Assembly (NCBI GenBank): GCA_947084985.1
Contig: CAMTUI010000023.1
Location: 98,266-162,265, forward strand
Length of the DNA: 64,000 nt
Reading direction: 5' to 3'
Source of the DNA: Methanobacteriota archaeon
Lineage (GTDB): Archaea > Thermoplasmatota > Thermoplasmata > RBG-16-68-12
Shown: positions 47,264 through 57,441 of the stretch, piece after piece
Layout of the letters: the number at the start of each line of letters is the position of its first letter
How positions within the stretch are numbered: position 1 is the stretch's first letter
Program-made: the position numbers and the translations under genes
Notes under the pieces: generated by a model
The model's database searches: none
Seen by the model: only the letters and a program-made list of their open reading frames with translations
What the model was told of the DNA's origin: nothing

Positions 47264-48148
47264 ATGTACCTCGGAGCTCACGTGTCGATCGCGGAGAGCA
47301 TCGCCCTCGCGCCGGAGCGCGGTCGAGCGGTTGGCGCCGACGCGATCCAGATCTTCTCTCGCAGCCCTCGAATGCTTCGAAAGACAAAGCCGATCACGGA
47401 GGAGGAGGCCAAAGCCTTCCAGGTCGCCATGACGGAGAACAAAATCGCTCGGGCCGTGATCCACGCAAACTACCTGATCAACCTCGGATCGCCGAAGAAG
47501 GCCGCGCTGAGATACAGCCGAGAGGCGTTCGTCGAGGAACTCGAGCGGGCCCAGGTCCTGGGCATCCGCGATGTGATCTTTCACCCGGGTGCCCACTTGG
47601 GCAAGGGAGAGGCGTACGGGCTCCGCACAATCCGCGAGAGCCTTGATGCGTGCCTCGAGGCCGCGAATGCGCCGGACGTGTACGCGGTCCTGGAAAACAC
47701 GGCAGGCCAGGGGAGCGTCCTCGGCCACACCTTCGAGCAGCTCGCGGAGGTCATGAAGGGGTCGTCCCATCCACAGCGGATGGCCGTGTGCATCGACACG
47801 TGCCACACGTTCGCGGCCGGATACGATTTCCGTACGCGCGACGGATACGACGACCTCATGAGGACGGTCGACGGGACCGTCGGGATCCCCCGCGTGCGCG
47901 CATTCCACCTGAACGACTCGAAGGGCGACCTCGGATCGCGCATGGATCGGCATGAGGACATCGGGAAGGGGGAGCTGGGCAAGGAGGCCTTCCGATTCCT
48001 CGTGAATGACGAACGCTTCCGCGAGCTCCCGGGCTGCCTCGAGTATCCGGGCACGGACGGCGGGTACAAGAGGAACCTGAAGCAGCTGCGCGCCCTGCTC
48101 AGTGGCTCGCGGCCCACGCCGAAGGCGCGGCGCGCACGCGGCACGTAA
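47264..48148 (+). CDS. nfo: endonuclease IV (AP endonuclease family 2)
   Basis: MYLGAHVSIA..., HANYLINL, IFHPG, LENTAGQG, IDTCHTFAAGYD, FHLNDSK. These are the Nfo metal-binding motifs. Confidence 0.85.
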   Translation: MYLGAHVSIAESIALAPERGRAVGADAIQIFSRSPRMLRKTKPITEEEAKAFQVAMTENKIARAVIHANYLINLGSPKKAALRYSREAFVEELERAQVLGIRDVIFHPGAHLGKGEAYGLRTIRESLDACLEAANAPDVYAVLENTAGQGSVLGHTFEQLAEVMKGSSHPQRMAVCIDTCHTFAAGYDFRTRDGYDDLMRTVDGTVGIPRVRAFHLNDSKGDLGSRMDRHEDIGKGELGKEAFRFLVNDERFRELPGCLEYPGTDGGYKRNLKQLRALLSGSRPTPKARRARGT

Positions 48149-48488
48149 GAGCATCTCGGAATCGCGCAGCGAAGCTGTACGCCCTGTGGGTGAGGGCCAA
48201 CAGAGCCGCCGATTCCTGGAGCAGACGCGCCGCACCCGCGCCCATCGGGAACGCCTCGACCAAGACGGGCACGGCGTCACCGCCCGTGGTGACGCGTCCG
48301 TCCGGGGAAACGACATGGAATGCGTCGAGAATCCGCTCGTCCGGGACCCCACGCAGGAGATCCCGGGAAGCCAGGATCGGCCGAACGTGGATGCGCCGCC
48401 GGATATCGACCGCACGGATGAGGCGACTCGCAGCGGAGCAGATGCCGCAATCTTCGTCGAAGAGTAGGACGTAGCGGCCCTCGACCAT
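48099..48488 (-). CDS. thiol-disulfide oxidoreductase DCC (DUF393) family protein
   Basis: The N-terminal LLFDEDCGICSAASRLI (DxxCxxC) is characteristic. The 3' end overlaps the convergent nfo by 50 nt. Confidence 0.65.
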   Translation of the reverse strand: MVEGRYVLLFDEDCGICSAASRLIRAVDIRRRIHVRPILASRDLLRGVPDERILDAFHVVSPDGRVTTGGDAVPVLVEAFPMGAGAARLLQESAALLALTHRAYSFAARFRDALTCRVRAAPSAWAASH

Positions 48489-48554
48489 GGTCTCGAGATT
48501 CCCTAGCCTCGGGCGGGCTTAAAGGAAACAGGCCCGCTCAACGAATAGTTATCC

Positions 48555-49217
48555 GTGCAGGGTCGTTTGGCCCCCGGGGATGATCCTACGATCCTCGACC
48601 CCGCCCGCATGACAGAGAAGGATTCCTACCGGCTCATGATCTCGGCATTCGTCCCGCGACCGATCGCGTTCGTCTCGACGCGGTCGCGCGATGGCCGCAC
48701 GAACTGTGCGCCGTTCTCGTACAGCATGGGGGTGTCAAGCCATCCGATGGTCCTCGCGCTCTCCGTTGGCGACCGGGACGGGCGGCCCAAGGACACCGCG
48801 GGAAACATCCTCGACACCCGGGAATTCGTCGTCAACATTGTCACGGAGGACATCGCAGAGAAGATGAACGTCGCGTCCGGCGACTTCGCGGAGAGCGTGA
48901 GCGAATTCGACGAAGCGGGCCTCACACCCGCGGCGTCGGAGGTCGTCGGAGCGCCGCGCATCGCGGAATCCCCGGTGAACTTTGAATGCCGGCTGATTCG
49001 CACGGTCCGTGTCGCCGATAACACCGTCTTCTTCGGAGAGGCTGTGCGGCTTCACGTCGACGACGCCGTCCTCACGGACGGTCTCGTGGACATCCGGAAG
49101 CTGCGGGCGGTCGGCCGCCTCGGGGGCCCGCGGTACTGCCGCACGCAAGACGTTTTCGAGATGGTCCGTCCGAAAGTCAGCGGACCCAAAGGCGCCCGGC
49201 GGACGGAGGCGCGATAG
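48555..49217 (+). CDS. flavin reductase-like (FMN-binding split-barrel) protein
   Basis: FVPRPIAFVSTRSRDGRTNCAPFSYSMGVSSHPMVLALSV, typical of the flavin reductase domain. The ATG at 48609 is an alternative start. Confidence 0.75.
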   Translation: MQGRLAPGDDPTILDPARMTEKDSYRLMISAFVPRPIAFVSTRSRDGRTNCAPFSYSMGVSSHPMVLALSVGDRDGRPKDTAGNILDTREFVVNIVTEDIAEKMNVASGDFAESVSEFDEAGLTPAASEVVGAPRIAESPVNFECRLIRTVRVADNTVFFGEAVRLHVDDAVLTDGLVDIRKLRAVGRLGGPRYCRTQDVFEMVRPKVSGPKGARRTEAR

Positions 49218-49543
49218 CCAAGCGGCGTACAATTATTCGCGTCGACGAATACCCGAATGAGCAACCGTGTGCATCCTTGACACGAACCCTTAAGTAGAGA
49301 AAATTCATGCGCCCGTTCGACACGATGCTGAGACCTGCGCGGTTCGGAAGGACGCACGCTGTTTGCCAATCGTCCCGCGTAGGATCGTCGGTGCTTCTTC
49401 TGTGACCGGCTCTCGGAGTTGAGGGGGCCGGTCATGGGTGGAAACAGGATGAGCTCAAGCTGGAAACGGGCAGGGGACGAGTCGGCAGGAGACGAGCGGA
49501 GCCGCTGCCGCGAACGTCACACGGTGGAGGAGGGGAATCTCGA

Positions 49544-50860
49544 ATGATGAGCGCACGTGAAATCGAGGCTGGCTGGAAGGAAGACGAGCGGTGGGCGGGC
49601 ATCATCCGCCCTTATCGAGCGGAGGACGTCGTGCGACTCCGCGGGTCCGTCCACATCGAGCACACGCTCGCGAGGATGGGCGCGGAGCGGTTGTGGAATC
49701 TATTCCACTCATTGCCGCAGGTCCTGGCGCTCGGCGCGCTGACAGGCAACCAAGCGATCGAGCAGGTCCAGGCGGGCCTGCCATCAATCTACCTGAGCGG
49801 CTGGCAGGTCGCCGCGGACAACAACGACGCGGGCCAGATGTACCCGGACCAGAGCCTGTATCCCGCGGACAGCGTGCCCAACATCGTGCGGCGGATCAAC
49901 AACGCCATGAAGCGCGAGGACGAGAAGCAGACGATGTCGGGCGAAGGCGAGACGTTCTGGTTCGCGCCGATCGTCGCGGACGCGGAAGCGGGATTCGGCG
50001 GGCCCCTGAACGCCTTCGAATTGATGAAGGCCATGATTGAGGCGGGCGCGGCGGGCGCCCACTTCGAGGACCAACTCGCGAGCGCGAAGAAGTGCGGCCA
50101 CGTGGGCGGGAAGGTCCTTGTGTCGACGGGCGTATTCCTGCAGAAGCTCGTCGCCGCTCGATTCGCCGCGGACATCTGCGGCGTGCCGACGATCCTGATC
50201 GCCCGCACCGATGCGAACTCCGCGAAGCTCATCACGACGGACGTGGATCCGCGCGACCAGCCGTTCATCCTGGACGGCGAGCGGACCGCGGAGGGCTTTC
50301 ACAACTTCCGGGGCGGCCTCGACGCGTCAATCGCGCGAGGCCTCGCGTACGCGCCGTTCGCGGACCTTTTATGGTGCGAGACGTCCGGGCCGGACCTTGA
50401 CGAGGCCCGGGTCTTCGCGGACGCGATCCACGCGCGCTTCCCGGGGAAGATGCTCGCCTACAACTGTTCCTCCTCGTTCAACTGGCGGAAGAAGCTCGAT
50501 TCCGCAGGGATCGCGCGATTCCAGCGGGAACTCGCGGACATGGGCTACAAGTTCCAGTTCGTGACCTTAGCGGGATTTCACTCCCTGAACCTCTCCATGT
50601 TCCGGCTCGCGAAGGGCTACCGGGAGAGAGGCATGACCGCCTACACGGAACTGCAGGACGAGGAGTTCGCCGCGAAGGCGGAGGGCTACCGCGCCGTCGA
50701 GCACCAGAAGTTCGTTGGCACGGCGTACTTCGACGAGATCACGCAAGTGGTCTCCGGCGGCCACGCGTCGACCTTGGCGATGCAGGGCTCCACGGAGCTA
50801 GAGCAATTCCGGGCACAGCCGTCTGTCGATCTCAGGGAGAAGCCGGTCCGTCCGCGGTGA
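49544..50860 (+). CDS. aceA: isocitrate lyase
   Basis: 438 aa with the catalytic KKCGH motif ([15 protein letters not shown]) and [19 protein letters not shown]. Shine-Dalgarno-like GGAGGAGGGG 8 nt upstream. Confidence 0.9.
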
Positions 50861-51010
50861 GGAACTCAGGAGACGCCTCGGGCTCGAAGGCGAGAATCCC
50901 CGCGGAACCGGTATCGTGACGATGAGAGCCGTCTGGACCTGAGGGGCGATTGTACCACTTTCGAGATACGACCCTCCGGCTTCGATAACACCGCGGAGGC
51001 GATCCGAAAA

Positions 51011-51030
51011 TTCCCATGACGATGGTAAAT
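51011..51030. promoter_or_regulatory. operator-like inverted repeat, copy 1 (TTCCCATGACGATGGTAAAT)
   Basis: 18/20 identical to 52835-52854. It overlaps the GGTAAATAACC TATA-like box about 26 nt upstream of the ATG at 51055 of the BlaI-like gene. Confidence 0.6.
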
Positions 51031-51054
51031 AACCATTGTCCGTACCGCGGCTTC

Positions 51055-51435
51055 ATGTCACCACGGGTCGATGGAGTCAACGTGCAACCCCTCGGGGACC
51101 TCGAGCTGCTCGTCCTCCAGGCCCTTGGCCGCCTCGGTGAAGCGCTGCCTGGCGATATCCACCGAGAGGTGGAGCGGCAGAGGCCCATCGCATACACCAC
51201 GGTCACGAACACCCTGTACCGTCTGGTCGACAAGGGGCTCGTCCGGACTCGAAAGGCGAGCAAAAAGAGGGCGTACTATCGCCTCGCCCCAGAGAGCCGG
51301 AGGTTCCAGTCCGCCTTGCGTGGTCTGGTAAATCGGCTCCTCGACACCTTTGGGGAGGCCGCCATCGCGCAGATCCTCGAGTCTCCCCGCGAGAGAACGA
51401 AGCGGAAGGGAGGTCGACGTCGTGGGCAGCCTTGA
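51055..51435 (+). CDS. BlaI/MecI/CopY family winged-helix transcriptional repressor
   Basis: LGDLELLVLQALGRLGEALPGDIHREVERQRPIAYTTVTNTLYRLVDKGLVRTRK fits the penicillinase-repressor wHTH. The longer ORF start at 51016 is possible but sits inside the operator. Confidence 0.65.
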   Translation: MSPRVDGVNVQPLGDLELLVLQALGRLGEALPGDIHREVERQRPIAYTTVTNTLYRLVDKGLVRTRKASKKRAYYRLAPESRRFQSALRGLVNRLLDTFGEAAIAQILESPRERTKRKGGRRRGQP

Positions 51436-52252
51436 GGCCCTCGAAGTCTACTGGTCCTCCCCTGGCGCGCTGACGGCCCTCATGGCCCACACGGTCCTCC
51501 TCATCGTCCTCGGGGTGACGTACCAGGTCACGTCGGGCCCTCGGCCACGGCTCCACATTCTGTATTCAGTCTACGCCGTGGATGTTTCCCTCTGGGCCTT
51601 CTTGGCCTCAAGCACCCTCTTGTGCGTGGCGCTGAGCGATCGTCTGGAATACGAGATTACTGGCGTCAAGCTTGCGACGTCCGTGTCCGTCTTCGGCGGA
51701 CTCGTCATCGGGGCCCTCGCGGGGATGGTCCTCACCTTCAGCGAGGCCGCCCAGGAGGCCCACATGGCCCGCTTGGGCGTGGACAGAATCCGCGTGACCC
51801 AGAGGGATGACGCACCGACCCTGGTATTCTCAGAACGGCCCGGACTCTTCGCTGCCTCATCCTCATTGCATGGGTCCGTCGTCATCCTGTCCCAGAGGCT
51901 CCAGCAGGTCCTCTCCCCCAACGAGCTCGAGGCGGTCATTGCCCACGAAGTCGCCCACCTGGCTAACAGGGATTCGCGTCGACGGCTTGCGTCTACGCTG
52001 CTTTCCAAATGCATGTTCTTTGATCCGCTCTCCAAGTTTGTCGACCCAGCCATCCATCGACAGGGCGAGTTCCTAGCCGATGACATGGCCGCGTCCGATC
52101 CGACCAAGGCGAGAGCCCTCGCGTCTGCGCTGGAAACCCTCGGGGCCGTTTGCTACGCGGATCACGGGGGCGGCAAGACTCCGGGCCTCCGTTCCCGCCA
52201 GGTCCCCCTGGAATTACGATTGCGTCGCCTAGCGAGGCGCTACAGCGGCTAA
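51422..52252 (+). CDS. membrane-bound HExxH zinc metalloprotease, M48/M56 (BlaR1/HtpX-like)
   Basis: Three N-terminal hydrophobic segments, then AVIAHEVAHLANRD and the downstream third-ligand motif RQGEFLADDMAA. The GTG at 51422 overlaps the repressor stop; the ATG at 51482 is an alternative. Confidence 0.65.
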   Translation: MGSLEALEVYWSSPGALTALMAHTVLLIVLGVTYQVTSGPRPRLHILYSVYAVDVSLWAFLASSTLLCVALSDRLEYEITGVKLATSVSVFGGLVIGALAGMVLTFSEAAQEAHMARLGVDRIRVTQRDDAPTLVFSERPGLFAASSSLHGSVVILSQRLQQVLSPNELEAVIAHEVAHLANRDSRRRLASTLLSKCMFFDPLSKFVDPAIHRQGEFLADDMAASDPTKARALASALETLGAVCYADHGGGKTPGLRSRQVPLELRLRRLARRYSG

Positions 52253-52357
52253 AGGAGAAGACCGGGGACGCTGCGGGTTCATTAGTTCCGCGGTGGTCGC
52301 CCCCAATCCGGACACGCCGCCCGTGCCGATCACAACGCGACGCGACTTCGAATCCAG

Positions 52358-52804
52358 CTATTCGAAGACCTCGATCACCATGCGCATCGTTTCCGTGTGG
52401 TCCGGTACGTGGCACACCATTTCGGCGATCCCGGCCTTGCTCGCCACGAACGTGACGTTCGTCCACTGCCCCCGGGTGACCGTGAAGCTCTGGTCGAACG
52501 CGTCGATTGTCGACGGGTGGCTAGCGCCGTTCACGCCGAAGATGTTCAGGCGGACCGTGTCGCCCTTGGAAACCCGGATGTAGCTCGGATCCCATCGATA
52601 CGCCTTGTAGGTCGTATTGGGAGGATTCTCGGTGGGTCCCGATGTTCCCTTGTATTCGACGGCGAGGACCACGAAGGTCCACTCTGTCGGCGCACGTGCC
52701 GGGACCGTTGACCGCGTGAGAACCAGGGTCGCACTGAATCCCGAAACGACCAGGGCGACGAGGGCCAATACGGCCAAGGTCACAATCTTCGATTTCTCGT
52801 TCAT
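52358..52804 (-). CDS. membrane-anchored cupredoxin (type 1 copper) domain protein
   Basis: N-terminal anchor IVTLAVLALVALVVSGF. Candidate Cu ligands are H (GASHPS) and C-x4-H-x3-M (MVCHVPDHTETM), an azurin-like spacing. Confidence 0.6.
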   Translation of the reverse strand: MNEKSKIVTLAVLALVALVVSGFSATLVLTRSTVPARAPTEWTFVVLAVEYKGTSGPTENPPNTTYKAYRWDPSYIRVSKGDTVRLNIFGVNGASHPSTIDAFDQSFTVTRGQWTNVTFVASKAGIAEMVCHVPDHTETMRMVIEVFE

Positions 52805-52834
52805 CGATTTCCTCCAGACCGCTTTCGCGGTGAA

Positions 52835-52854
52835 TTACCATCACGATGGTAAAT
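52835..52854. promoter_or_regulatory. operator-like inverted repeat, copy 2 (TTACCATC-AC-GATGGTAA-AT)
   Basis: Perfect 8-bp arms with a 2-nt spacer, lying 31-50 nt upstream of the cupredoxin start at 52804. Confidence 0.6.
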
Positions 52855-53020
52855 GCTCTAGAAGCATGTCCTCGTACTGTACGTATTGTACGACGGTGGG
52901 CAGCTGGGCATTGCCTCGGGCGGATCCACAGACCTCCCTACGCACGACGACAGGCAAGCCGCCGGAAGGGACCGGTTCATGGCCCGGTCGAAGCGACCGA
53001 GGGCCTGCCCTCCAAGAAGA

Positions 53021-54244
53021 TCAGAAGGGCAACTTGCTCAAGCCAATCGCGAGAGGGAGGAGCGCCTGCTCCCGGCCTAGGAACTTCGCCGTCTGAAGCA
53101 CCGCATTGAGGTAGCTGATCGTGTGCTCCTTCTCGCCGACGGTCCAGTGTCCGTAGAAATCGACCACCATCGCGAGGAGATCGTCAAGGAGCACGCCGGC
53201 TTCGAGGGCCTGCCGCACGGTCTGTTCCGCGGGGGGCGACTTGTACCGGAGGCTCGACTCGACGGCTGCGAGGATCGACTCTCGCTTGACAGCGCTCGGT
53301 TCGCCGAGGGCAAGAAATTCCGGATATCCGAAGCGCGTCGTGAGGGTACGGTACAGCTTCCACGAGAGCCAAGTATTCTCCGACGGAGTGAGGTATCGCG
53401 TCGCGAGCCGCGCCGCGTGGGCTTCGCTCAGGGTGTGGCCAAGGAAACCGGGGTCCGCACTCGCCGCGACGAGGAGGGGCCGATATGCGTCCTCTGCCAG
53501 ACCCTCCGTGGCGAGGGATTGCAAGACGGGCTCCACGCGATCGAACTCCCAGTCCTCGAGGAGTCGGCCGAGCAACTCGACGTCTGGCTCTGCCATGCGG
53601 CCCCCCGCGAGTTCGGGAATCTCCGTGGGCCGTACGCCCTGCAAGGCGACCGCTTGGATGTAACCAAGGTTCGCGAGGGGGACGAGTCCTCGTGGCAAGC
53701 CAAGAGACGAGGCGACATCGGAATACCCGACGCCCATCCCTAGGTTGTGCCCTAGTCGGCCGAGGTCATCCAGGGCGGTCCGGATCGCGAGGTGGGCCGC
53801 CGCATCGAGGCCCCCGTCCAGTGCGACGCGCGCGAGGAGAGTCGCCGCCTTCAGGCCGACACCGTCGAAGACCATTTTGCGATATACGCGTTCCATCTCA
53901 TCGAGGTTCGCGGGCGGCACGGCACGGGCTTCTGCCTCGACCCGCGCGAGTGTCAGGCCGCGTTTCTGCAAGCTGAAGTTGTAGAGGACGAGGAAACGCA
54001 GGAGCCCGAGCCCGCCCGGCGGACGCGTGAGACGCAGGAGGTCCCGCCCGGCCTGCAGCGTCAGCATGCCGTGCGGCGTGTGCAGCTGCGGATCGTCATG
54101 GTTCGAGACGACGAGGAGGAGCTCCTGCAGGATCGGCGCCGCATTCGCGGGGTCCTTCGCGAGCTCGTCGAACATCCGGATACCCTTCTGGTGTTCGAAG
54201 GTCGGGAGGAGAGCGAAGAACCGCTCCAGCTCTTTTGACGCCAA
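53021..54244 (-). CDS. hypothetical protein (407 aa, all-helical)
   Basis: Long protein-like ORF with GC-rich third positions and a TTG start, preceded about 30 nt upstream by GCTAATGT. I recognise no family. Confidence 0.55.
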   Translation of the reverse strand: MASKELERFFALLPTFEHQKGIRMFDELAKDPANAAPILQELLLVVSNHDDPQLHTPHGMLTLQAGRDLLRLTRPPGGLGLLRFLVLYNFSLQKRGLTLARVEAEARAVPPANLDEMERVYRKMVFDGVGLKAATLLARVALDGGLDAAAHLAIRTALDDLGRLGHNLGMGVGYSDVASSLGLPRGLVPLANLGYIQAVALQGVRPTEIPELAGGRMAEPDVELLGRLLEDWEFDRVEPVLQSLATEGLAEDAYRPLLVAASADPGFLGHTLSEAHAARLATRYLTPSENTWLSWKLYRTLTTRFGYPEFLALGEPSAVKRESILAAVESSLRYKSPPAEQTVRQALEAGVLLDDLLAMVVDFYGHWTVGEKEHTISYLNAVLQTAKFLGREQALLPLAIGLSKLPF

Positions 54245-54332: not shown

Positions 54333-55262
54333 ATGGCCTTGTACGACGTCATCGTCATCGGCTCGGGACCCGCGGGACTCACCGCGGCGATCTACGCGAC
54401 CCGGGCGAATCTCAAAACACTCGTGATCACCGGGCAGGTCGCCGGCGGTCAACTCATGATCACGACGGACGTGGAGAACTACCCCGGGTTCCCGAAGGGC
54501 ATCCTCGGGCCGGAGCTCATGGAGTTGTGGCGGCACCAGGCGGAACGGTTCAAGGCGGACTTCGCGGACGAGGACGCCACCAAGGTCGACTTCTCCGCCA
54601 AGCCATTCAAGGTGTGGACGTCCAATGAGGCGCATGAGGGTCGCTCGGTCGTCATCGCGACGGGGGCGAACGCAAAGTATCTCGGCCTCCCAAGCGAGGA
54701 GCGCCTCAAGGGCCGAGGGGTGAGTGCGTGCGCGACGTGCGACGGGTTTTTTTTTAGGAATCTCGACGTCGTCGTGGTCGGCGGTGGCGACACCGCGATG
54801 GAGGAGAGCCTCTACCTCTCGAAGCTCTGCAAGACGGTCACGGTCGTCCATCGCCGCGACGCGTTCCGCGCGAGCAAGATCATGCAGGACCGACTGTTCA
54901 AGACGCCGAACATCAAGGTCGTTTGGGACTCCGGGGTCGTCGACATCCTCGGCGACCAGAAGATCGAAACCATCCGAATCAAGAACGTGAAGAGCGGTAA
55001 GGAATCCGACATCAAGGCGCAAGGCCTCTTCCTCGCGATCGGGCATGTGCCCGCCACGGAAATCTTTCGCGGGCAGCTCGCGATGGAGAAGGGCTACATC
55101 GCCCTGCGACCGCGCGACGGGTTTTCGACCGCGACCTCCGTCGACGGCGTGTTCGCCGCCGGGGACGTCCATGACTTCCGATACCGTCAGGCGGTCACCG
55201 CCGCGGGCTTCGGATGCATGGCGGCCCTCGACGCAGAGCGGTGGCTGCAGGGCCACGGCTGA
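54333..55262 (+). CDS. trxB: thioredoxin-disulfide reductase
   Basis: GSGPAG FAD motif, redox-active CATC (SACATCDGFFF) and second Rossmann VVVGGGDTAMEE. Confidence 0.9.
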   Translation: MALYDVIVIGSGPAGLTAAIYATRANLKTLVITGQVAGGQLMITTDVENYPGFPKGILGPELMELWRHQAERFKADFADEDATKVDFSAKPFKVWTSNEAHEGRSVVIATGANAKYLGLPSEERLKGRGVSACATCDGFFFRNLDVVVVGGGDTAMEESLYLSKLCKTVTVVHRRDAFRASKIMQDRLFKTPNIKVVWDSGVVDILGDQKIETIRIKNVKSGKESDIKAQGLFLAIGHVPATEIFRGQLAMEKGYIALRPRDGFSTATSVDGVFAAGDVHDFRYRQAVTAAGFGCMAALDAERWLQGHG

Positions 55263-55325
55263 GCCGCTCCAGCGTGAACGCACGCGCGAAATCCTCAAGT
55301 AGCGTGCGTGGGTTGGACGGCCTCC

Positions 55326-55763
55326 ATGGTTCGGATTTTCCGCGGCGGCGTGCTCGACGAGCGGTTCGAAGGATCCGTCGTGGTCATCGGCCCTCGTCCG
55401 ACGACGATGACGGGGCTCGTGCGCGGGGATCTCTTCGTACGCGACAACAGCGTCTGCGACGTCACAGGCATGGTGTCGGGAAACCTCCTTGCGGAACGGA
55501 CCGGTAAGGCAATCCTGCATGGCCTCGTCACGAAGGCCGCGAAGGCGGCCGGCGGGGACCTCGAGATCTACGGCATGGTCCAGGGCGACGTCGTGAACGA
55601 AGGAGGCCGCGTGTTCGTCGACAAGGGCGCAGTCGTACGCGGGAGGGTCGTCGGCCAGGTCCGCGATGCGCCCCTTCCGCCGCCAGAGAAACCGGCGACG
55701 CCCGCCCCGACCGGGGCGGCGACCGTACCGCCGAAGCCTCCCGCCCCGCCACCGAGCGGGTGA
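55326..55763 (+). CDS. bactofilin-like (polymer-forming beta-helix) protein with Pro-rich tail (tentative)
   Basis: Repetitive G-x-V/I beta-strand pattern (VRGDLFVRDNSVCDVTGMVSGNLLAE...IYGMVQGDVVNEGGRVFVDKGAVVRGRVVG), followed by PLPPPEKPATPAPTGAATVPPKPPAPPPSG. Confidence 0.45.
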   Translation: MVRIFRGGVLDERFEGSVVVIGPRPTTMTGLVRGDLFVRDNSVCDVTGMVSGNLLAERTGKAILHGLVTKAAKAAGGDLEIYGMVQGDVVNEGGRVFVDKGAVVRGRVVGQVRDAPLPPPEKPATPAPTGAATVPPKPPAPPPSG

Positions 55764-55767
55764 GTTC

Positions 55768-56505
55768 TCAGGCCTTCGCTTCGACGATGTCGACAGGTGT
55801 CTCCTTGAGGGGCATGCGGTCCGGCTGTTTCTCCCCGGCGGCGTACAGCTGCAGATACGGGATCAGGTTGCCGATGATCCGGTTCTCCGCCTTCCGGAGG
55901 TGCTCCTCGTACGTGGAGCGGCTCACCCCGAGGCCATTCGCGATGTTTTCCGTCGTGATGTCTCGGGGCGCGTTGTAGTACCCGTAGCGGTGCGCCTTCA
56001 ACATCGCATCCATCTGCTTCGACGTCATGTCGCCGAATAGGCTGTTCACCCAGATCGAGGAGGGGAGGATACTCAATGGCAGTTCTCGCTTCCGGATGAG
56101 CTCGGTCGGCCCGCGCTTGTTGAAGTCGCGGAACAGATCCCGCGTGTTCGTTTCGTCGAATGCAATCACGCGGAAGTGGCCCCAGCCGTCCTTGAAGATC
56201 GCGGGCGGCGCGTCGACCGCCTCGTGCGCCTCCCAGATCTTCCACGGACTGTCCAAGTTGCCGCAGGTGCATTTCAACATGAAGATCCGCGAGTCCGCCG
56301 CCTCGACCCACTGGTCGATGCACTTCCCCGCCTTCCGAATCTCCTTTGCGATGTCCGCGAGGGTGGTTTCGTCCAATGTGGGGACCTGGACCAGCTCGCG
56401 GTTCCAGATGCACCACATCGAGATCGGCAGGCCCGGATGGCGTCCCGAGATTTTCATGAACGGGTAGTCATACTGAGTCCGGAACGAGATCTCCCAGAGG
56501 CTCAT
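55768..56505 (-). CDS. HTH_10 (bacterio-opsin activator-like) DNA-binding protein
   Basis: C-terminal LTSKQMDAMLKAHRYGYYNAPRDITTENIANGLGVSRSTYEEHLRKAENRI, the archaeal Bat-type HTH. The ATG at 56505 lies within ORF 55768..56646. Confidence 0.75.
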   Translation of the reverse strand: MSLWEISFRTQYDYPFMKISGRHPGLPISMWCIWNRELVQVPTLDETTLADIAKEIRKAGKCIDQWVEAADSRIFMLKCTCGNLDSPWKIWEAHEAVDAPPAIFKDGWGHFRVIAFDETNTRDLFRDFNKRGPTELIRKRELPLSILPSSIWVNSLFGDMTSKQMDAMLKAHRYGYYNAPRDITTENIANGLGVSRSTYEEHLRKAENRIIGNLIPYLQLYAAGEKQPDRMPLKETPVDIVEAKA

Positions 56506-56792
56506 GGGACGTCCATCACGTTGCTCGGGGATATAGGTACTGCCGTCATATGACGGCCGCCGAAGGCGGGTCAAATCAGTTCGTCCCCAAAGTCCTTTCC
56601 CATCCCGAGGTGCAAGACATGTACCTAACCGGATTGGAAAACACACGCATTTGGACGGACAGCAACCGCAACTTCACTCTTCGGCAGTATGGCCGGATGG
56701 AGTACGGGTCCTCCGAGATCGGCTGGCTCCTGGCGTCTCCGAAGACGCCGCGGGCTCCGCAAGATCAGAGGCTTCTTCGGGAGGGCCGGCCG

Positions 56793-56882
56793 ATGAGCAC
56801 CTCGGCGTCCATCGCCGCCCTCGTGCTGTGGCTCTTGGTCACAATCTCCGCCCCGTTGGTGATATTCTGGCTCTTCCGCTGA
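56793..56882 (+). CDS. hydrophobic micro-ORF (29 aa)
   Basis: MSTSASIAALVLWLLVTISAPLVIFWLFR, one clear TM segment. It may be the first part of a frameshifted gene together with the next ORF. Confidence 0.3.
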   Translation: MSTSASIAALVLWLLVTISAPLVIFWLFR

Positions 56883-56908
56883 GGCGCAAGGCGCTCGTCG
56901 TCTTCGGC

Positions 56909-57052
56909 ATGGCGGCCGCCTCGCTCCTCGCGATGAACCTCTTCTACCCGGCCGTGTCGCGCGTCGCCGGGCCGCTCACCGGCTTAATAATGATCGCGTT
57001 CACCTTCTGGGTCGTGTTCATGGCGTCGTCGGTCGTGAGGGCGATGGGATGA
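56909..57052 (+). CDS. hydrophobic small protein (47 aa, two TM segments)
   Basis: MAAASLLAMNLFYPAVSRVAGPLTGLIMIAFTFWVVFMASSVVRAMG. The same frame is open upstream as LRRKALVVFG. Confidence 0.3.
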   Translation: MAAASLLAMNLFYPAVSRVAGPLTGLIMIAFTFWVVFMASSVVRAMG

Positions 57053-57177
57053 GGCTGCGGCTGCGGTACTTCCTGAACTCGTTTCGAGGCTTCGCCGCCT
57101 TCGACGTCCACGGCCACGACGAATCCGGCCACTGAAGGCGGCGCAGGTTTTTATCGCACGGCTCCGTCCACGGGACG

Positions 57178-57441
57178 ATGCCGGAAGTCCTAATCCGGTA
57201 CTGCCTCCCGTGTCGATATCAGACGAAGGCGATTCAGGACGCAGACGCGATTCTGGAGGAGTTCGGGGGGGAGTTGTCCGCCCTCCGATTGGTCCCGGGC
57301 GACCACGGCGTCTACGACGTCGAGGTGGACGGCAAGCTCGTGTTCTCCCTCGACAAGGCGACGCGGTTCCCGGAGACGCCCGAGCTGATCCGGGAAATCC
57401 GGGCTCGGATCGGAGCGAAGAAGGCCCGCAAGAAGGCGTGA
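57178..57441 (+). CDS. Rdx (SelW/SelT/SelH-like) thioredoxin-fold protein, Cys form
   Basis: N-terminal CxxC (IRYCLPCRYQ) followed by LVPGDHGVYDVEVDGKLVFS...RFPE, the Rdx family pattern. TATA-like GTTTTTATCG lies 26 nt upstream. Confidence 0.65.
   Translation: MPEVLIRYCLPCRYQTKAIQDADAILEEFGGELSALRLVPGDHGVYDVEVDGKLVFSLDKATRFPETPELIREIRARIGAKKARKKA

Follow-up and report, generated by a model that had tools for sequence, protein, structure and literature searches.

The archaeal locus described here lies in a stretch of 64,000 nucleotides (hereafter the window) from a member of the Thermoplasmata (contig CAMTUI010000023.1, positions 98,266 to 162,265), and comprises a gene for a BlaI/MecI/CopY-family repressor, a membrane zinc metalloprotease gene in the same operon and a convergent gene for a small copper protein, a cupredoxin (Table 1). 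BlaI/BlaR systems are the textbook case for beta-lactam resistance. We propose with moderate confidence, from the sequence and by analogy with characterised systems, that this locus is a BlaI/BlaR-type (BlaIR) repressor-protease switch that would control the blue-copper protein. The identities of the genes, the structure of the operon, the duplication of an operator and the conservation of this operator at both promoters across lineages are the observations from which the proposal starts. The module is near minimal size, with a repressor of 126 amino acids and a protease of 276 amino acids that has essentially no ectodomain. Its operator, kept across lineages, is readable straight from the sequence, and within the DNA covered by the analysis the module is dedicated to one target, a predicted blue-copper electron carrier.

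Positions 51011-51030 (TTCCCATGACGATGGTAAAT), upstream of the repressor gene, and 52835-52854 (TTACCATCACGATGGTAAAT), upstream of the cupredoxin gene, are identical at 18/20 positions, and the repeat pair can be extended to 51009-51030 and 52833-52854 with identity at 20/22. The initial annotation of this DNA had reported the 18/20 pair, the perfect 8-bp inverted repeat (2-nt spacer) that constitutes the second copy, and the location of this copy before the cupredoxin start at 52804 on the minus strand; all three hold, copy 2 ending 31 nt upstream of that start. With up to three mismatches allowed, the 20-mer is found at two places only in the window, the third listed match being the palindrome on the opposite strand, and none of 100 dinucleotide-preserving shuffles of the window matched it, which gives an expectation of 0 by chance. 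The palindrome of copy 2 is not special on its own, since the window, with a G+C content of ~65% throughout, contains five perfect 8-bp inverted repeats of this layout; the significance of the operator derives from its duplication at two promoters and its retention in orthologous loci. The window and the non-redundant related loci (145.5 kb together) were scanned position by position against TACCATC-NN-GATGGTA, with 14 scored positions. Sites of at least 12/14 numbered 12, against 0.17 expected from base composition, and 12/12 lie in repressor or cupredoxin promoters, not at many unrelated loci. A chance repeat is ruled out by the shuffles and by this enrichment across the window and the related loci. 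At the repressor promoter, the core of the operator O_R (51012-51027, TCCCATGACGATGGTA) has a perfect right half-site and a degenerate left one, while in the core of the operator O_C, which lies 32-47 nt before the cupredoxin ATG, the palindrome is perfect. A distal second operator upstream of the window cupredoxin was treated as absent, the only candidate being a left half-site matching at 5/7.

The same arrangement is found in related loci (designated by L-numbers), the GTDB records of the homologues being metagenome-assembled genomes of Thermoplasmata. The order repressor, protease and convergent cupredoxin is kept in the window, L003-L007, L008-L013, L014-L020, L021 and L023, in at least five Thermoplasmata lineages, with repressor identities of 45-70% across the syntenic loci; the conservation of synteny, which the initial annotation had put forward as a check, is thus established. 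The flanking genes are unrelated, namely isocitrate lyase in the window and MOSC/thiolase, FtsZ with Mre11/Rad50 or Nuo/NrfD in other loci, and the trio can therefore be regarded as a self-contained module. In no syntenic locus is the motif missing from the upstream regions of the orthologous genes. The cupredoxin-promoter site scores 13-14/14 in each of them except L006 (11/14) and lies 30-69 nt upstream of the ATG, and the repressor-promoter site scores 10-13/14 in each, with orthologous repressor-upstream sites in L003, L006, L008, L012, L015, L017 and L023. In intergenic alignments, conservation is limited to the operator, an AT-rich element and a Shine-Dalgarno-like GGAGG(TGA). By contrast, no operator site was found upstream of a distant cupredoxin homologue (43% identity, L025) that has neither repressor nor protease nearby.

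Table 1. Features of the repressor-protease-cupredoxin module, in window coordinates.
Feature	Position	Strand	Basis
Operator O_R, repressor promoter	51009..51030	.	22-nt repeat pair; 12/14 to TACCATC-NN-GATGGTA
TATA-like box GGTAAATAACC	51024..51034	+	Fused to O_R right half; read from sequence
BlaI/MecI/CopY-family winged-helix repressor, 126 amino acids	51055..51435	+	PF03965 59.4 bits; no cysteine; basic C-terminal tail
Sensor-less membrane zinc metalloprotease, M48/M56 clan, 276 amino acids	51422..52252	+	M48 41.3 bits; HEVAH + EFLAD
Single-domain cupredoxin, membrane-anchored or Sec-exported, 148 amino acids	52358..52804	-	Hydrophobic helix 7-25; ligands H96, C131, H136, M140
Shine-Dalgarno-like GGAGG	52811..52815	-	6 nt upstream of cupredoxin ATG
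Operator O_C, cupredoxin promoter	52833..52854	.	14/14 to consensus; core 52836-52851 = TACCATCACGATGGTA

The assignment of the first gene to the BlaI/MecI/CopY family, already made in the initial annotation, is substantiated by a score of 59.4 bits on Pfam PF03965 (Penicillinase_R; cutoff 22.6, residues 13-110) and by full-length profile matches. A 15-member repressor profile matches BlaI of Mycobacterium tuberculosis (2g9w, E 2.7e-16) and MecI (1e-14) over the full length, followed by CopR of L. lactis (7.5e-14) and BlaI (4e-11). Its positions 2-118 align with residues 6-121 of 2g9w and 7-120 of MecI, including the C-terminal helical dimerisation domain. The lack of the CopY metal site, also predicted earlier, extends to the whole family: none of the 15 members has a single cysteine, and the C-terminal CxC...CxC Zn/Cu site of CopY/TcrY is therefore absent from all of them, while the score on TIGR02698 is 29 bits for a cutoff of 122. 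Direct copper sensing of the CopY type was considered and is ruled out by this absence of cysteines.

The GTG of the protease gene (51422) overlaps the TGA of the repressor gene (51433-35) by 14 nt, in agreement with the overlap described initially; in relatives, the two genes overlap by 8 nt (L001 and L008) or abut (L003). The encoded protein scores 41.3 bits on Pfam M48 (cutoff 20.3), carries HEVAH at residues 175-179 and EFLAD with E216, and has HExxH, E, R and D residues that are invariant across 15 homologues. It aligns with residues 184-252 of S. aureus BlaR1, which cover HExxH and ExxAD. Three transmembrane (TM) segments are predicted from hydropathy (15-33, 53-71 and 88-106), and the Arg-rich loop between TM1 and TM2 suggests a topology with the N-terminus outside and the protease domain inside. 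The chain stops ~60 residues past the Glu ligand and includes neither a TM4 nor a sensor or other C-terminal domain, and its N-terminus, MGSLEALxxYWxSP, is invariant among orthologues.

The third protein is a type-1 (blue) copper cupredoxin, its copper binding being predicted from the ligand set. The ligands are invariant in 17 homologues with the azurin-like spacing C-x4-H-x3-M, and both fold and profile matches concur with the azurin-like copper protein foreseen in the initial annotation. The AlphaFold2 model is an eight-strand sandwich (predicted local distance difference test, pLDDT, 88), for which Foldseek ranks nitrosocyanin first (1ibz, E 3.6e-10, target-normalised template modelling score, TM-score, 0.79), with further matches to cupredoxin domains of NirK, laccase and NosZ. 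The family profile retrieves from the PDB the N-terminal cupredoxin domain of 6tfd, a three-domain nitrite reductase (4.8e-11), and nitrosocyanin (1.3e-8). Single-sequence Pfam and NCBIfam searches of the cupredoxin remained below threshold, its identity having come from the profile and fold searches; of the Pfam models proposed in the initial annotation, those for PF03965 and M48 scored above their cutoffs, and those for M56 and for cupredoxins in single-sequence mode below. The protease and cupredoxin genes are separated at their convergent 3' ends by 105 nt in the window. These ends overlap or abut in L003 (1607-1610), L017 (1693-1696) and L006 (7189-7192), where transcription from both sides could have additional consequences through antisense or collision.

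From these elements we infer DNA binding by the window repressor, repression rather than activation, cleavage and a signal, according to the following scheme. The winged-helix repressor would bind as a dimer to the 16-bp palindrome TACCATC-NN-GATGGTA, in a 7-2-7 layout. O_R overlaps the TATA-like box ahead of the repressor's own, probably leaderless, operon, and binding there would mean autorepression; O_C, flanked by the presumed TATA region and leader of the convergent cupredoxin gene, would be the second target. The bound repressor would block recruitment of the TATA-binding protein (TBP) and transcription factor B (TFB), or of RNA polymerase, at both promoters. The synthesis of the repressor would be translationally coupled to that of the metalloprotease, whose HExxH...E domain is predicted to face the cytoplasm behind three TM segments. 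On the model of BlaR1/MecR1 and of the M. tuberculosis BlaR, a membrane or extracytoplasmic cue would activate the protease, which would then cleave the repressor; the cupredoxin would be derepressed and the repressor-protease pair resupplied.

Several observations weigh against this scheme. The assignment of the protease to M48/M56 stands as regards M48, the HEVAH/EFLAD motifs and the BlaR1 alignment, but its score of 25.9 bits on Pfam M56 (PF05569) is under the cutoff of 31; its orthologues carry precomputed PF05569 matches. The predicted AlphaFold2 structure (pLDDT 73) gives weak matches, the best Foldseek ones being ZMPSTE24, BlaR1 and BepA (E ~2e-3, TM-score ~0.45), and the structure search adds little beyond the sequence because of this weakness. 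The protease has almost no extracytoplasmic surface through which it could sense a cue. The Asn-Phe scissile pair (N101-F102 of MecI) corresponds to Gln-Ile in the window repressor and is variable across the family, and cleavage may take place at another position. The core of the archaeal operator, CATC/GATG, differs from the TACA/TGTA (KACANNTGTA) of BlaI and CopY. In five lineages the operator lies upstream of the TATA box, which in archaea can mean activation, and the placement of the operators relative to TATA box and start is a reading of the sequence alone.

In an alternative reading, the repressor would be switched by a small ligand, a metal or sequestration, the protease acting in HtpX-like membrane quality control or in maturation or turnover of the cupredoxin. 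The best curated matches of the protease are indeed to M48/HtpX and its best PDB sequence match is an HtpX fragment (3cqb), the scissile pair is unconserved, and in L003, L006 and L017 the protease gene meets or overlaps its cupredoxin neighbour at the 3' end. We nevertheless regard this alternative as unlikely, given that the repressor-protease pair is a conserved unit, kept even in a sister sub-clade devoid of the cupredoxin, and that ~96% of the BlaR homologues (M56) in an InterPro survey of bacteria adjoin a BlaI homologue (PMC13492132). As for metal switching, a metal site in the repressor is itself unlikely because the family has no cysteines and the one histidine of the window repressor falls outside the conserved columns.

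The layout of the promoters bears on the sign of the regulation. In the window the right half-site and the AT-rich box are fused (GATGGTAAATAAC), and the overlap of copy 1 with a TATA-like box upstream of the ATG at 51055, noted in the initial annotation, was recovered (GGTAAATAACC, 51024-34). From the T of TAAATAA (51026) to this ATG the distance is 29 nt, equal to that between TAAATAGG and the start in L003, L006 and L017, where a separate repressor TATA box, (G/T)AAATAGG, has its first base 29 nt before the start codon. This TATA-to-start spacing suggests a leaderless repressor mRNA, and the position of the T supports 51055 as its start. A GTG at 51082 is a possible alternative, since homologues align only from residue 10-13 on. 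The repressor frame also continues upstream without a stop (51016-51054), across the operator and two further ATGs (51016 and 51022), which is why gene callers give versions of 134-139 amino acids; these versions, starting within the operator, probably represent miscalled starts. The repressor frames of L008 and L012 are likewise open back into the operator. At the other promoter, the cupredoxin operator appears, as far as the sequence can be interpreted, to cover the stretch between TATA box and transcription start. The GGAGG before the cupredoxin ATG, kept as GGAGG/GGAGGTGA at the equivalent place in orthologous loci, implies a leadered mRNA that starts at or just downstream of O_C.

An activating or dual role, with the BlaI-like protein recruiting TBP/TFB from a position upstream of the TATA box and the protease ending expression instead of starting it, has to be considered in the light of this layout. 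It could explain the repressor-promoter operator of L003, L006, L015, L017 and L023, located at -63..-48 from the start codon and ~18 nt upstream of a separate TATA box, as well as the second, weaker site found 48-49 nt upstream of the proximal cupredoxin site in L003, L006, L014, L015, L017 and L023; the paired sites of these six loci recall the double operators of CopY and BlaI systems (PMC7253601). We judge such a role improbable, because the operator overlaps the TATA-like box at the repressor promoter in the window and in its nearest relatives L008, L012 and L021, because in the sister sub-clade the site lies between TATA box and start at both promoters, the classical position of a repressor, and because the characterised BlaI, MecI and CopY proteins are all repressors, as established for the family (PMC7253601).

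The strongest, though indirect, argument for binding of the site by the neighbouring BlaI-like protein comes from this sister sub-clade. A metagenome scan with the protease alignment yielded ~12 loci of a second type (L001, L028-L036, L040 and L043), in which the repressors are 46-56% and the proteases 31-33% identical to those of the window, and from which the cupredoxin is absent. In their repressor promoters the TATA box is followed by TTACTAT-N4-ATAGTA and this by the ATG or GTG of a leaderless gene. A second, TATA-fused copy precedes an open reading frame (ORF) of ~300-346 amino acids with a weak NTP_transf_2 match, beside a glycosyltransferase of family GT2, which points to a target related to the envelope or to glycosylation. 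From sequence comparison, the clade-wide operator is TACYAT-N4-ATRGTA, and it follows the repressor gene while the target differs between the sub-clades. Even though perfect 8-bp inverted repeats are not rare (five in the window) and the role of the BlaI-like protein is deduced from sequence, it is highly improbable that the palindrome is bound by a factor encoded elsewhere, or is a non-regulatory conserved element with a coincidental BlaI-like neighbour, since the site tracks the repressor over two sub-clades with different targets, is missing at the repressor-less cupredoxin homologue, fits a BlaI/CopY dimer in length and 7-2-7 symmetry (PMC7253601) and shows the extreme enrichment of 12 sites against 0.17 expected. 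Positions of the sister operator include L001 5978-5999, L036 3910-3928, L030 5494-5513, L035 1599 and L040 1731. A separate, single observation concerns L044 (640-690), a low-GC contig in which the protease gene is followed, in the same orientation, by a gene for a cupredoxin homologue of 34% identity; ahead of the latter come a TATA box (CATTAAATAAC) and then TACTAC-N5-GTAGTA, a differently spaced palindrome.

Returning to the proposed BlaIR-type switch, the invariant 13-residue N-terminus, the 11-residue loop between TM2 and TM3 and the TM helices of the protease are, judging from its predicted topology, the only plausible surfaces for sensing. Candidates for the signal include the availability of copper, oxygen or the redox state of respiration, and stress on the envelope; the range is narrowed to copper, oxygen/redox and envelope state because the sole target in the examined DNA is a blue-copper carrier. 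As a speculative extension, to which we attach a low probability, the cupredoxin could be both output and sensor, its copper-loading or redox state being sensed in trans by the protease, whether through the invariant N-terminus, taken to be extracytoplasmic, through the loop between TM2 and TM3 or through helix-helix contacts in the membrane. Were this the case, it would constitute a feedback loop tying copper or oxygen supply to transcription via regulated proteolysis, the first such switch described in Archaea and possibly a model for perception by sensor-less BlaR proteins.

Around the module, no copper-resistance or respiratory gene cluster was found in the window. The neighbours (isocitrate lyase, flavin reductase, endonuclease IV, thioredoxin reductase, an HTH_10 regulator and aldehyde dehydrogenases) are syntenic in none of the related loci. 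Redox and central-metabolism genes occupy 47264-50860 and 54333-57441, including a DCC1-like thiol-disulfide oxidoreductase, an HTH_10/HVO_A0563_N regulator and an Rdx-family protein. On the minus strand, 53021-54244 is an ORF of 407 amino acids with good coding statistics, matching no Pfam or NCBIfam family and unconserved beside the module elsewhere. In the 216-nt gap between this ORF and the cupredoxin gene, 20 nt beyond O_C, an inverted repeat TCGTAC-N10-GTACGA (52872-52893) may be the site of another factor, a weak terminator of the upstream gene or a product of chance. No Rfam match to a known structured RNA was found anywhere in the window. Near the module of L006/L007 (3400-4680), a dCMP/cytidine deaminase gene contains an intein (Hint_2/Intein_splicing), the orthologue in L004 and L005 being an intein-free protein of 137 amino acids.

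Automated annotation already names each gene of the module, and Penicillinase_R is among the families tallied for archaea in a published inventory of their transcription factors (PMC8253408). Our literature search found no description of an archaeal BlaI/BlaR or M56 system, of its operator or of its cupredoxin target, in line with the initial annotation, which knew of no characterised archaeal example. Small membrane-anchored one-domain blue copper proteins are described as abundant in Thermoplasmata of soil and sediment, in a study of large blue-copper inventories that also extend to groundwater members (PMC9038741), and a text search of the paper gave no mention of a regulator. Together with such one-domain proteins of Thermoplasmata and Nitrososphaerales, nitrosocyanin is the nearest known counterpart of the window protein, with which it shares the cupredoxin fold, but it belongs to the red copper proteins, its ligands being a Cys, two His residues and a Glu, in contrast to the blue His/Cys/His/Met set found here.

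Among bacterial systems, BlaI (Rv1846c, 2g9w) and BlaR (Rv1845c) of M. tuberculosis offer several parallels. This BlaI is the nearest solved relative of the repressor family over its full length, and the BlaR has no penicillin-binding domain, like the archaeal protease (PMC13492132). The regulon of this BlaI includes the ATP synthase operon, i.e. energy metabolism (PMC12565901), a target that parallels the respiratory electron carrier of the archaeal module. The mycobacterial system differs in being bacterial, in its sigma-factor promoter, in also controlling a beta-lactamase and in its operator sequence, and the archaeal protease is shorter than this BlaR, with its 276 amino acids, three TM segments and an end directly after the catalytic domain. 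With BlaI-BlaR1 of S. aureus and B. licheniformis and with MecI-MecR1, the archaeal module shares a dimeric winged-helix repressor with a C-terminal helical dimerisation domain, a gene pair of repressor and M56-type protease, and palindromic operators at its own and at the target promoters. Unlike BlaR1 and MecR1, the archaeal protease has neither TM4 nor an extracellular transpeptidase-like sensor domain; moreover, the Asn-Phe site is unconserved, the promoter is of the archaeal TATA type, and the target is a blue-copper protein instead of a beta-lactamase or PBP2a.

CopY/CopR of Firmicutes (2k4b) belongs to the same Pfam family, the DNA-binding domain matching CopR at 7.5e-14, and likewise has a copper-related target. 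The refined CopY operator, RNYKACANNTGTMRNY, is 16 bp long with a 7-2-7 layout and is sometimes present in two copies (PMC7253601); the archaeal operator matches RNYKACANNTGTMRNY in this layout only, the core bases being different. These regulators differ by their C-terminal CxC...CxC metal site and by their target, a copper-exporting ATPase or chaperone, whereas the archaeal repressor has a protease partner. A resemblance in design is offered by CenIR of C. difficile and other sensor-less BlaIR systems, which combine a BlaI-like repressor with an M56 protease without beta-lactam-binding domain; CenIR also has a small dedicated regulon and an activating signal that is unknown (PMC13492132). 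It differs in being bacterial and in its regulon of cell-envelope genes, and CenR keeps a C-terminal extension while the archaeal protease has none.

The transpeptidase domain is present in only ~6% of M56 proteins and missing from ~94%, and sensor-less BlaR homologues are thus the majority of the family in bacteria (PMC13492132); the archaeal design is for this reason less unusual than the initial annotation implied. According to the same 2026 survey, most members of the BlaI/BlaR family have no antibiotic sensor and respond to unknown cues (PMC13492132). If our proposal is true, the module would show, in clear-cut form, a proteolytic switch of bacterial type at work on a TATA/TFB promoter, and it would provide, from an uncultured host, a model open to testing of how sensor-less BlaR proteins signal and of how blue-copper proteins are regulated in archaea. 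Compared with the bacterial family, the logic of the circuit is shared and no new principle is involved; it is the domain of life, the core of the operator and the output that differ, together with a protease reduced to a minimal form.

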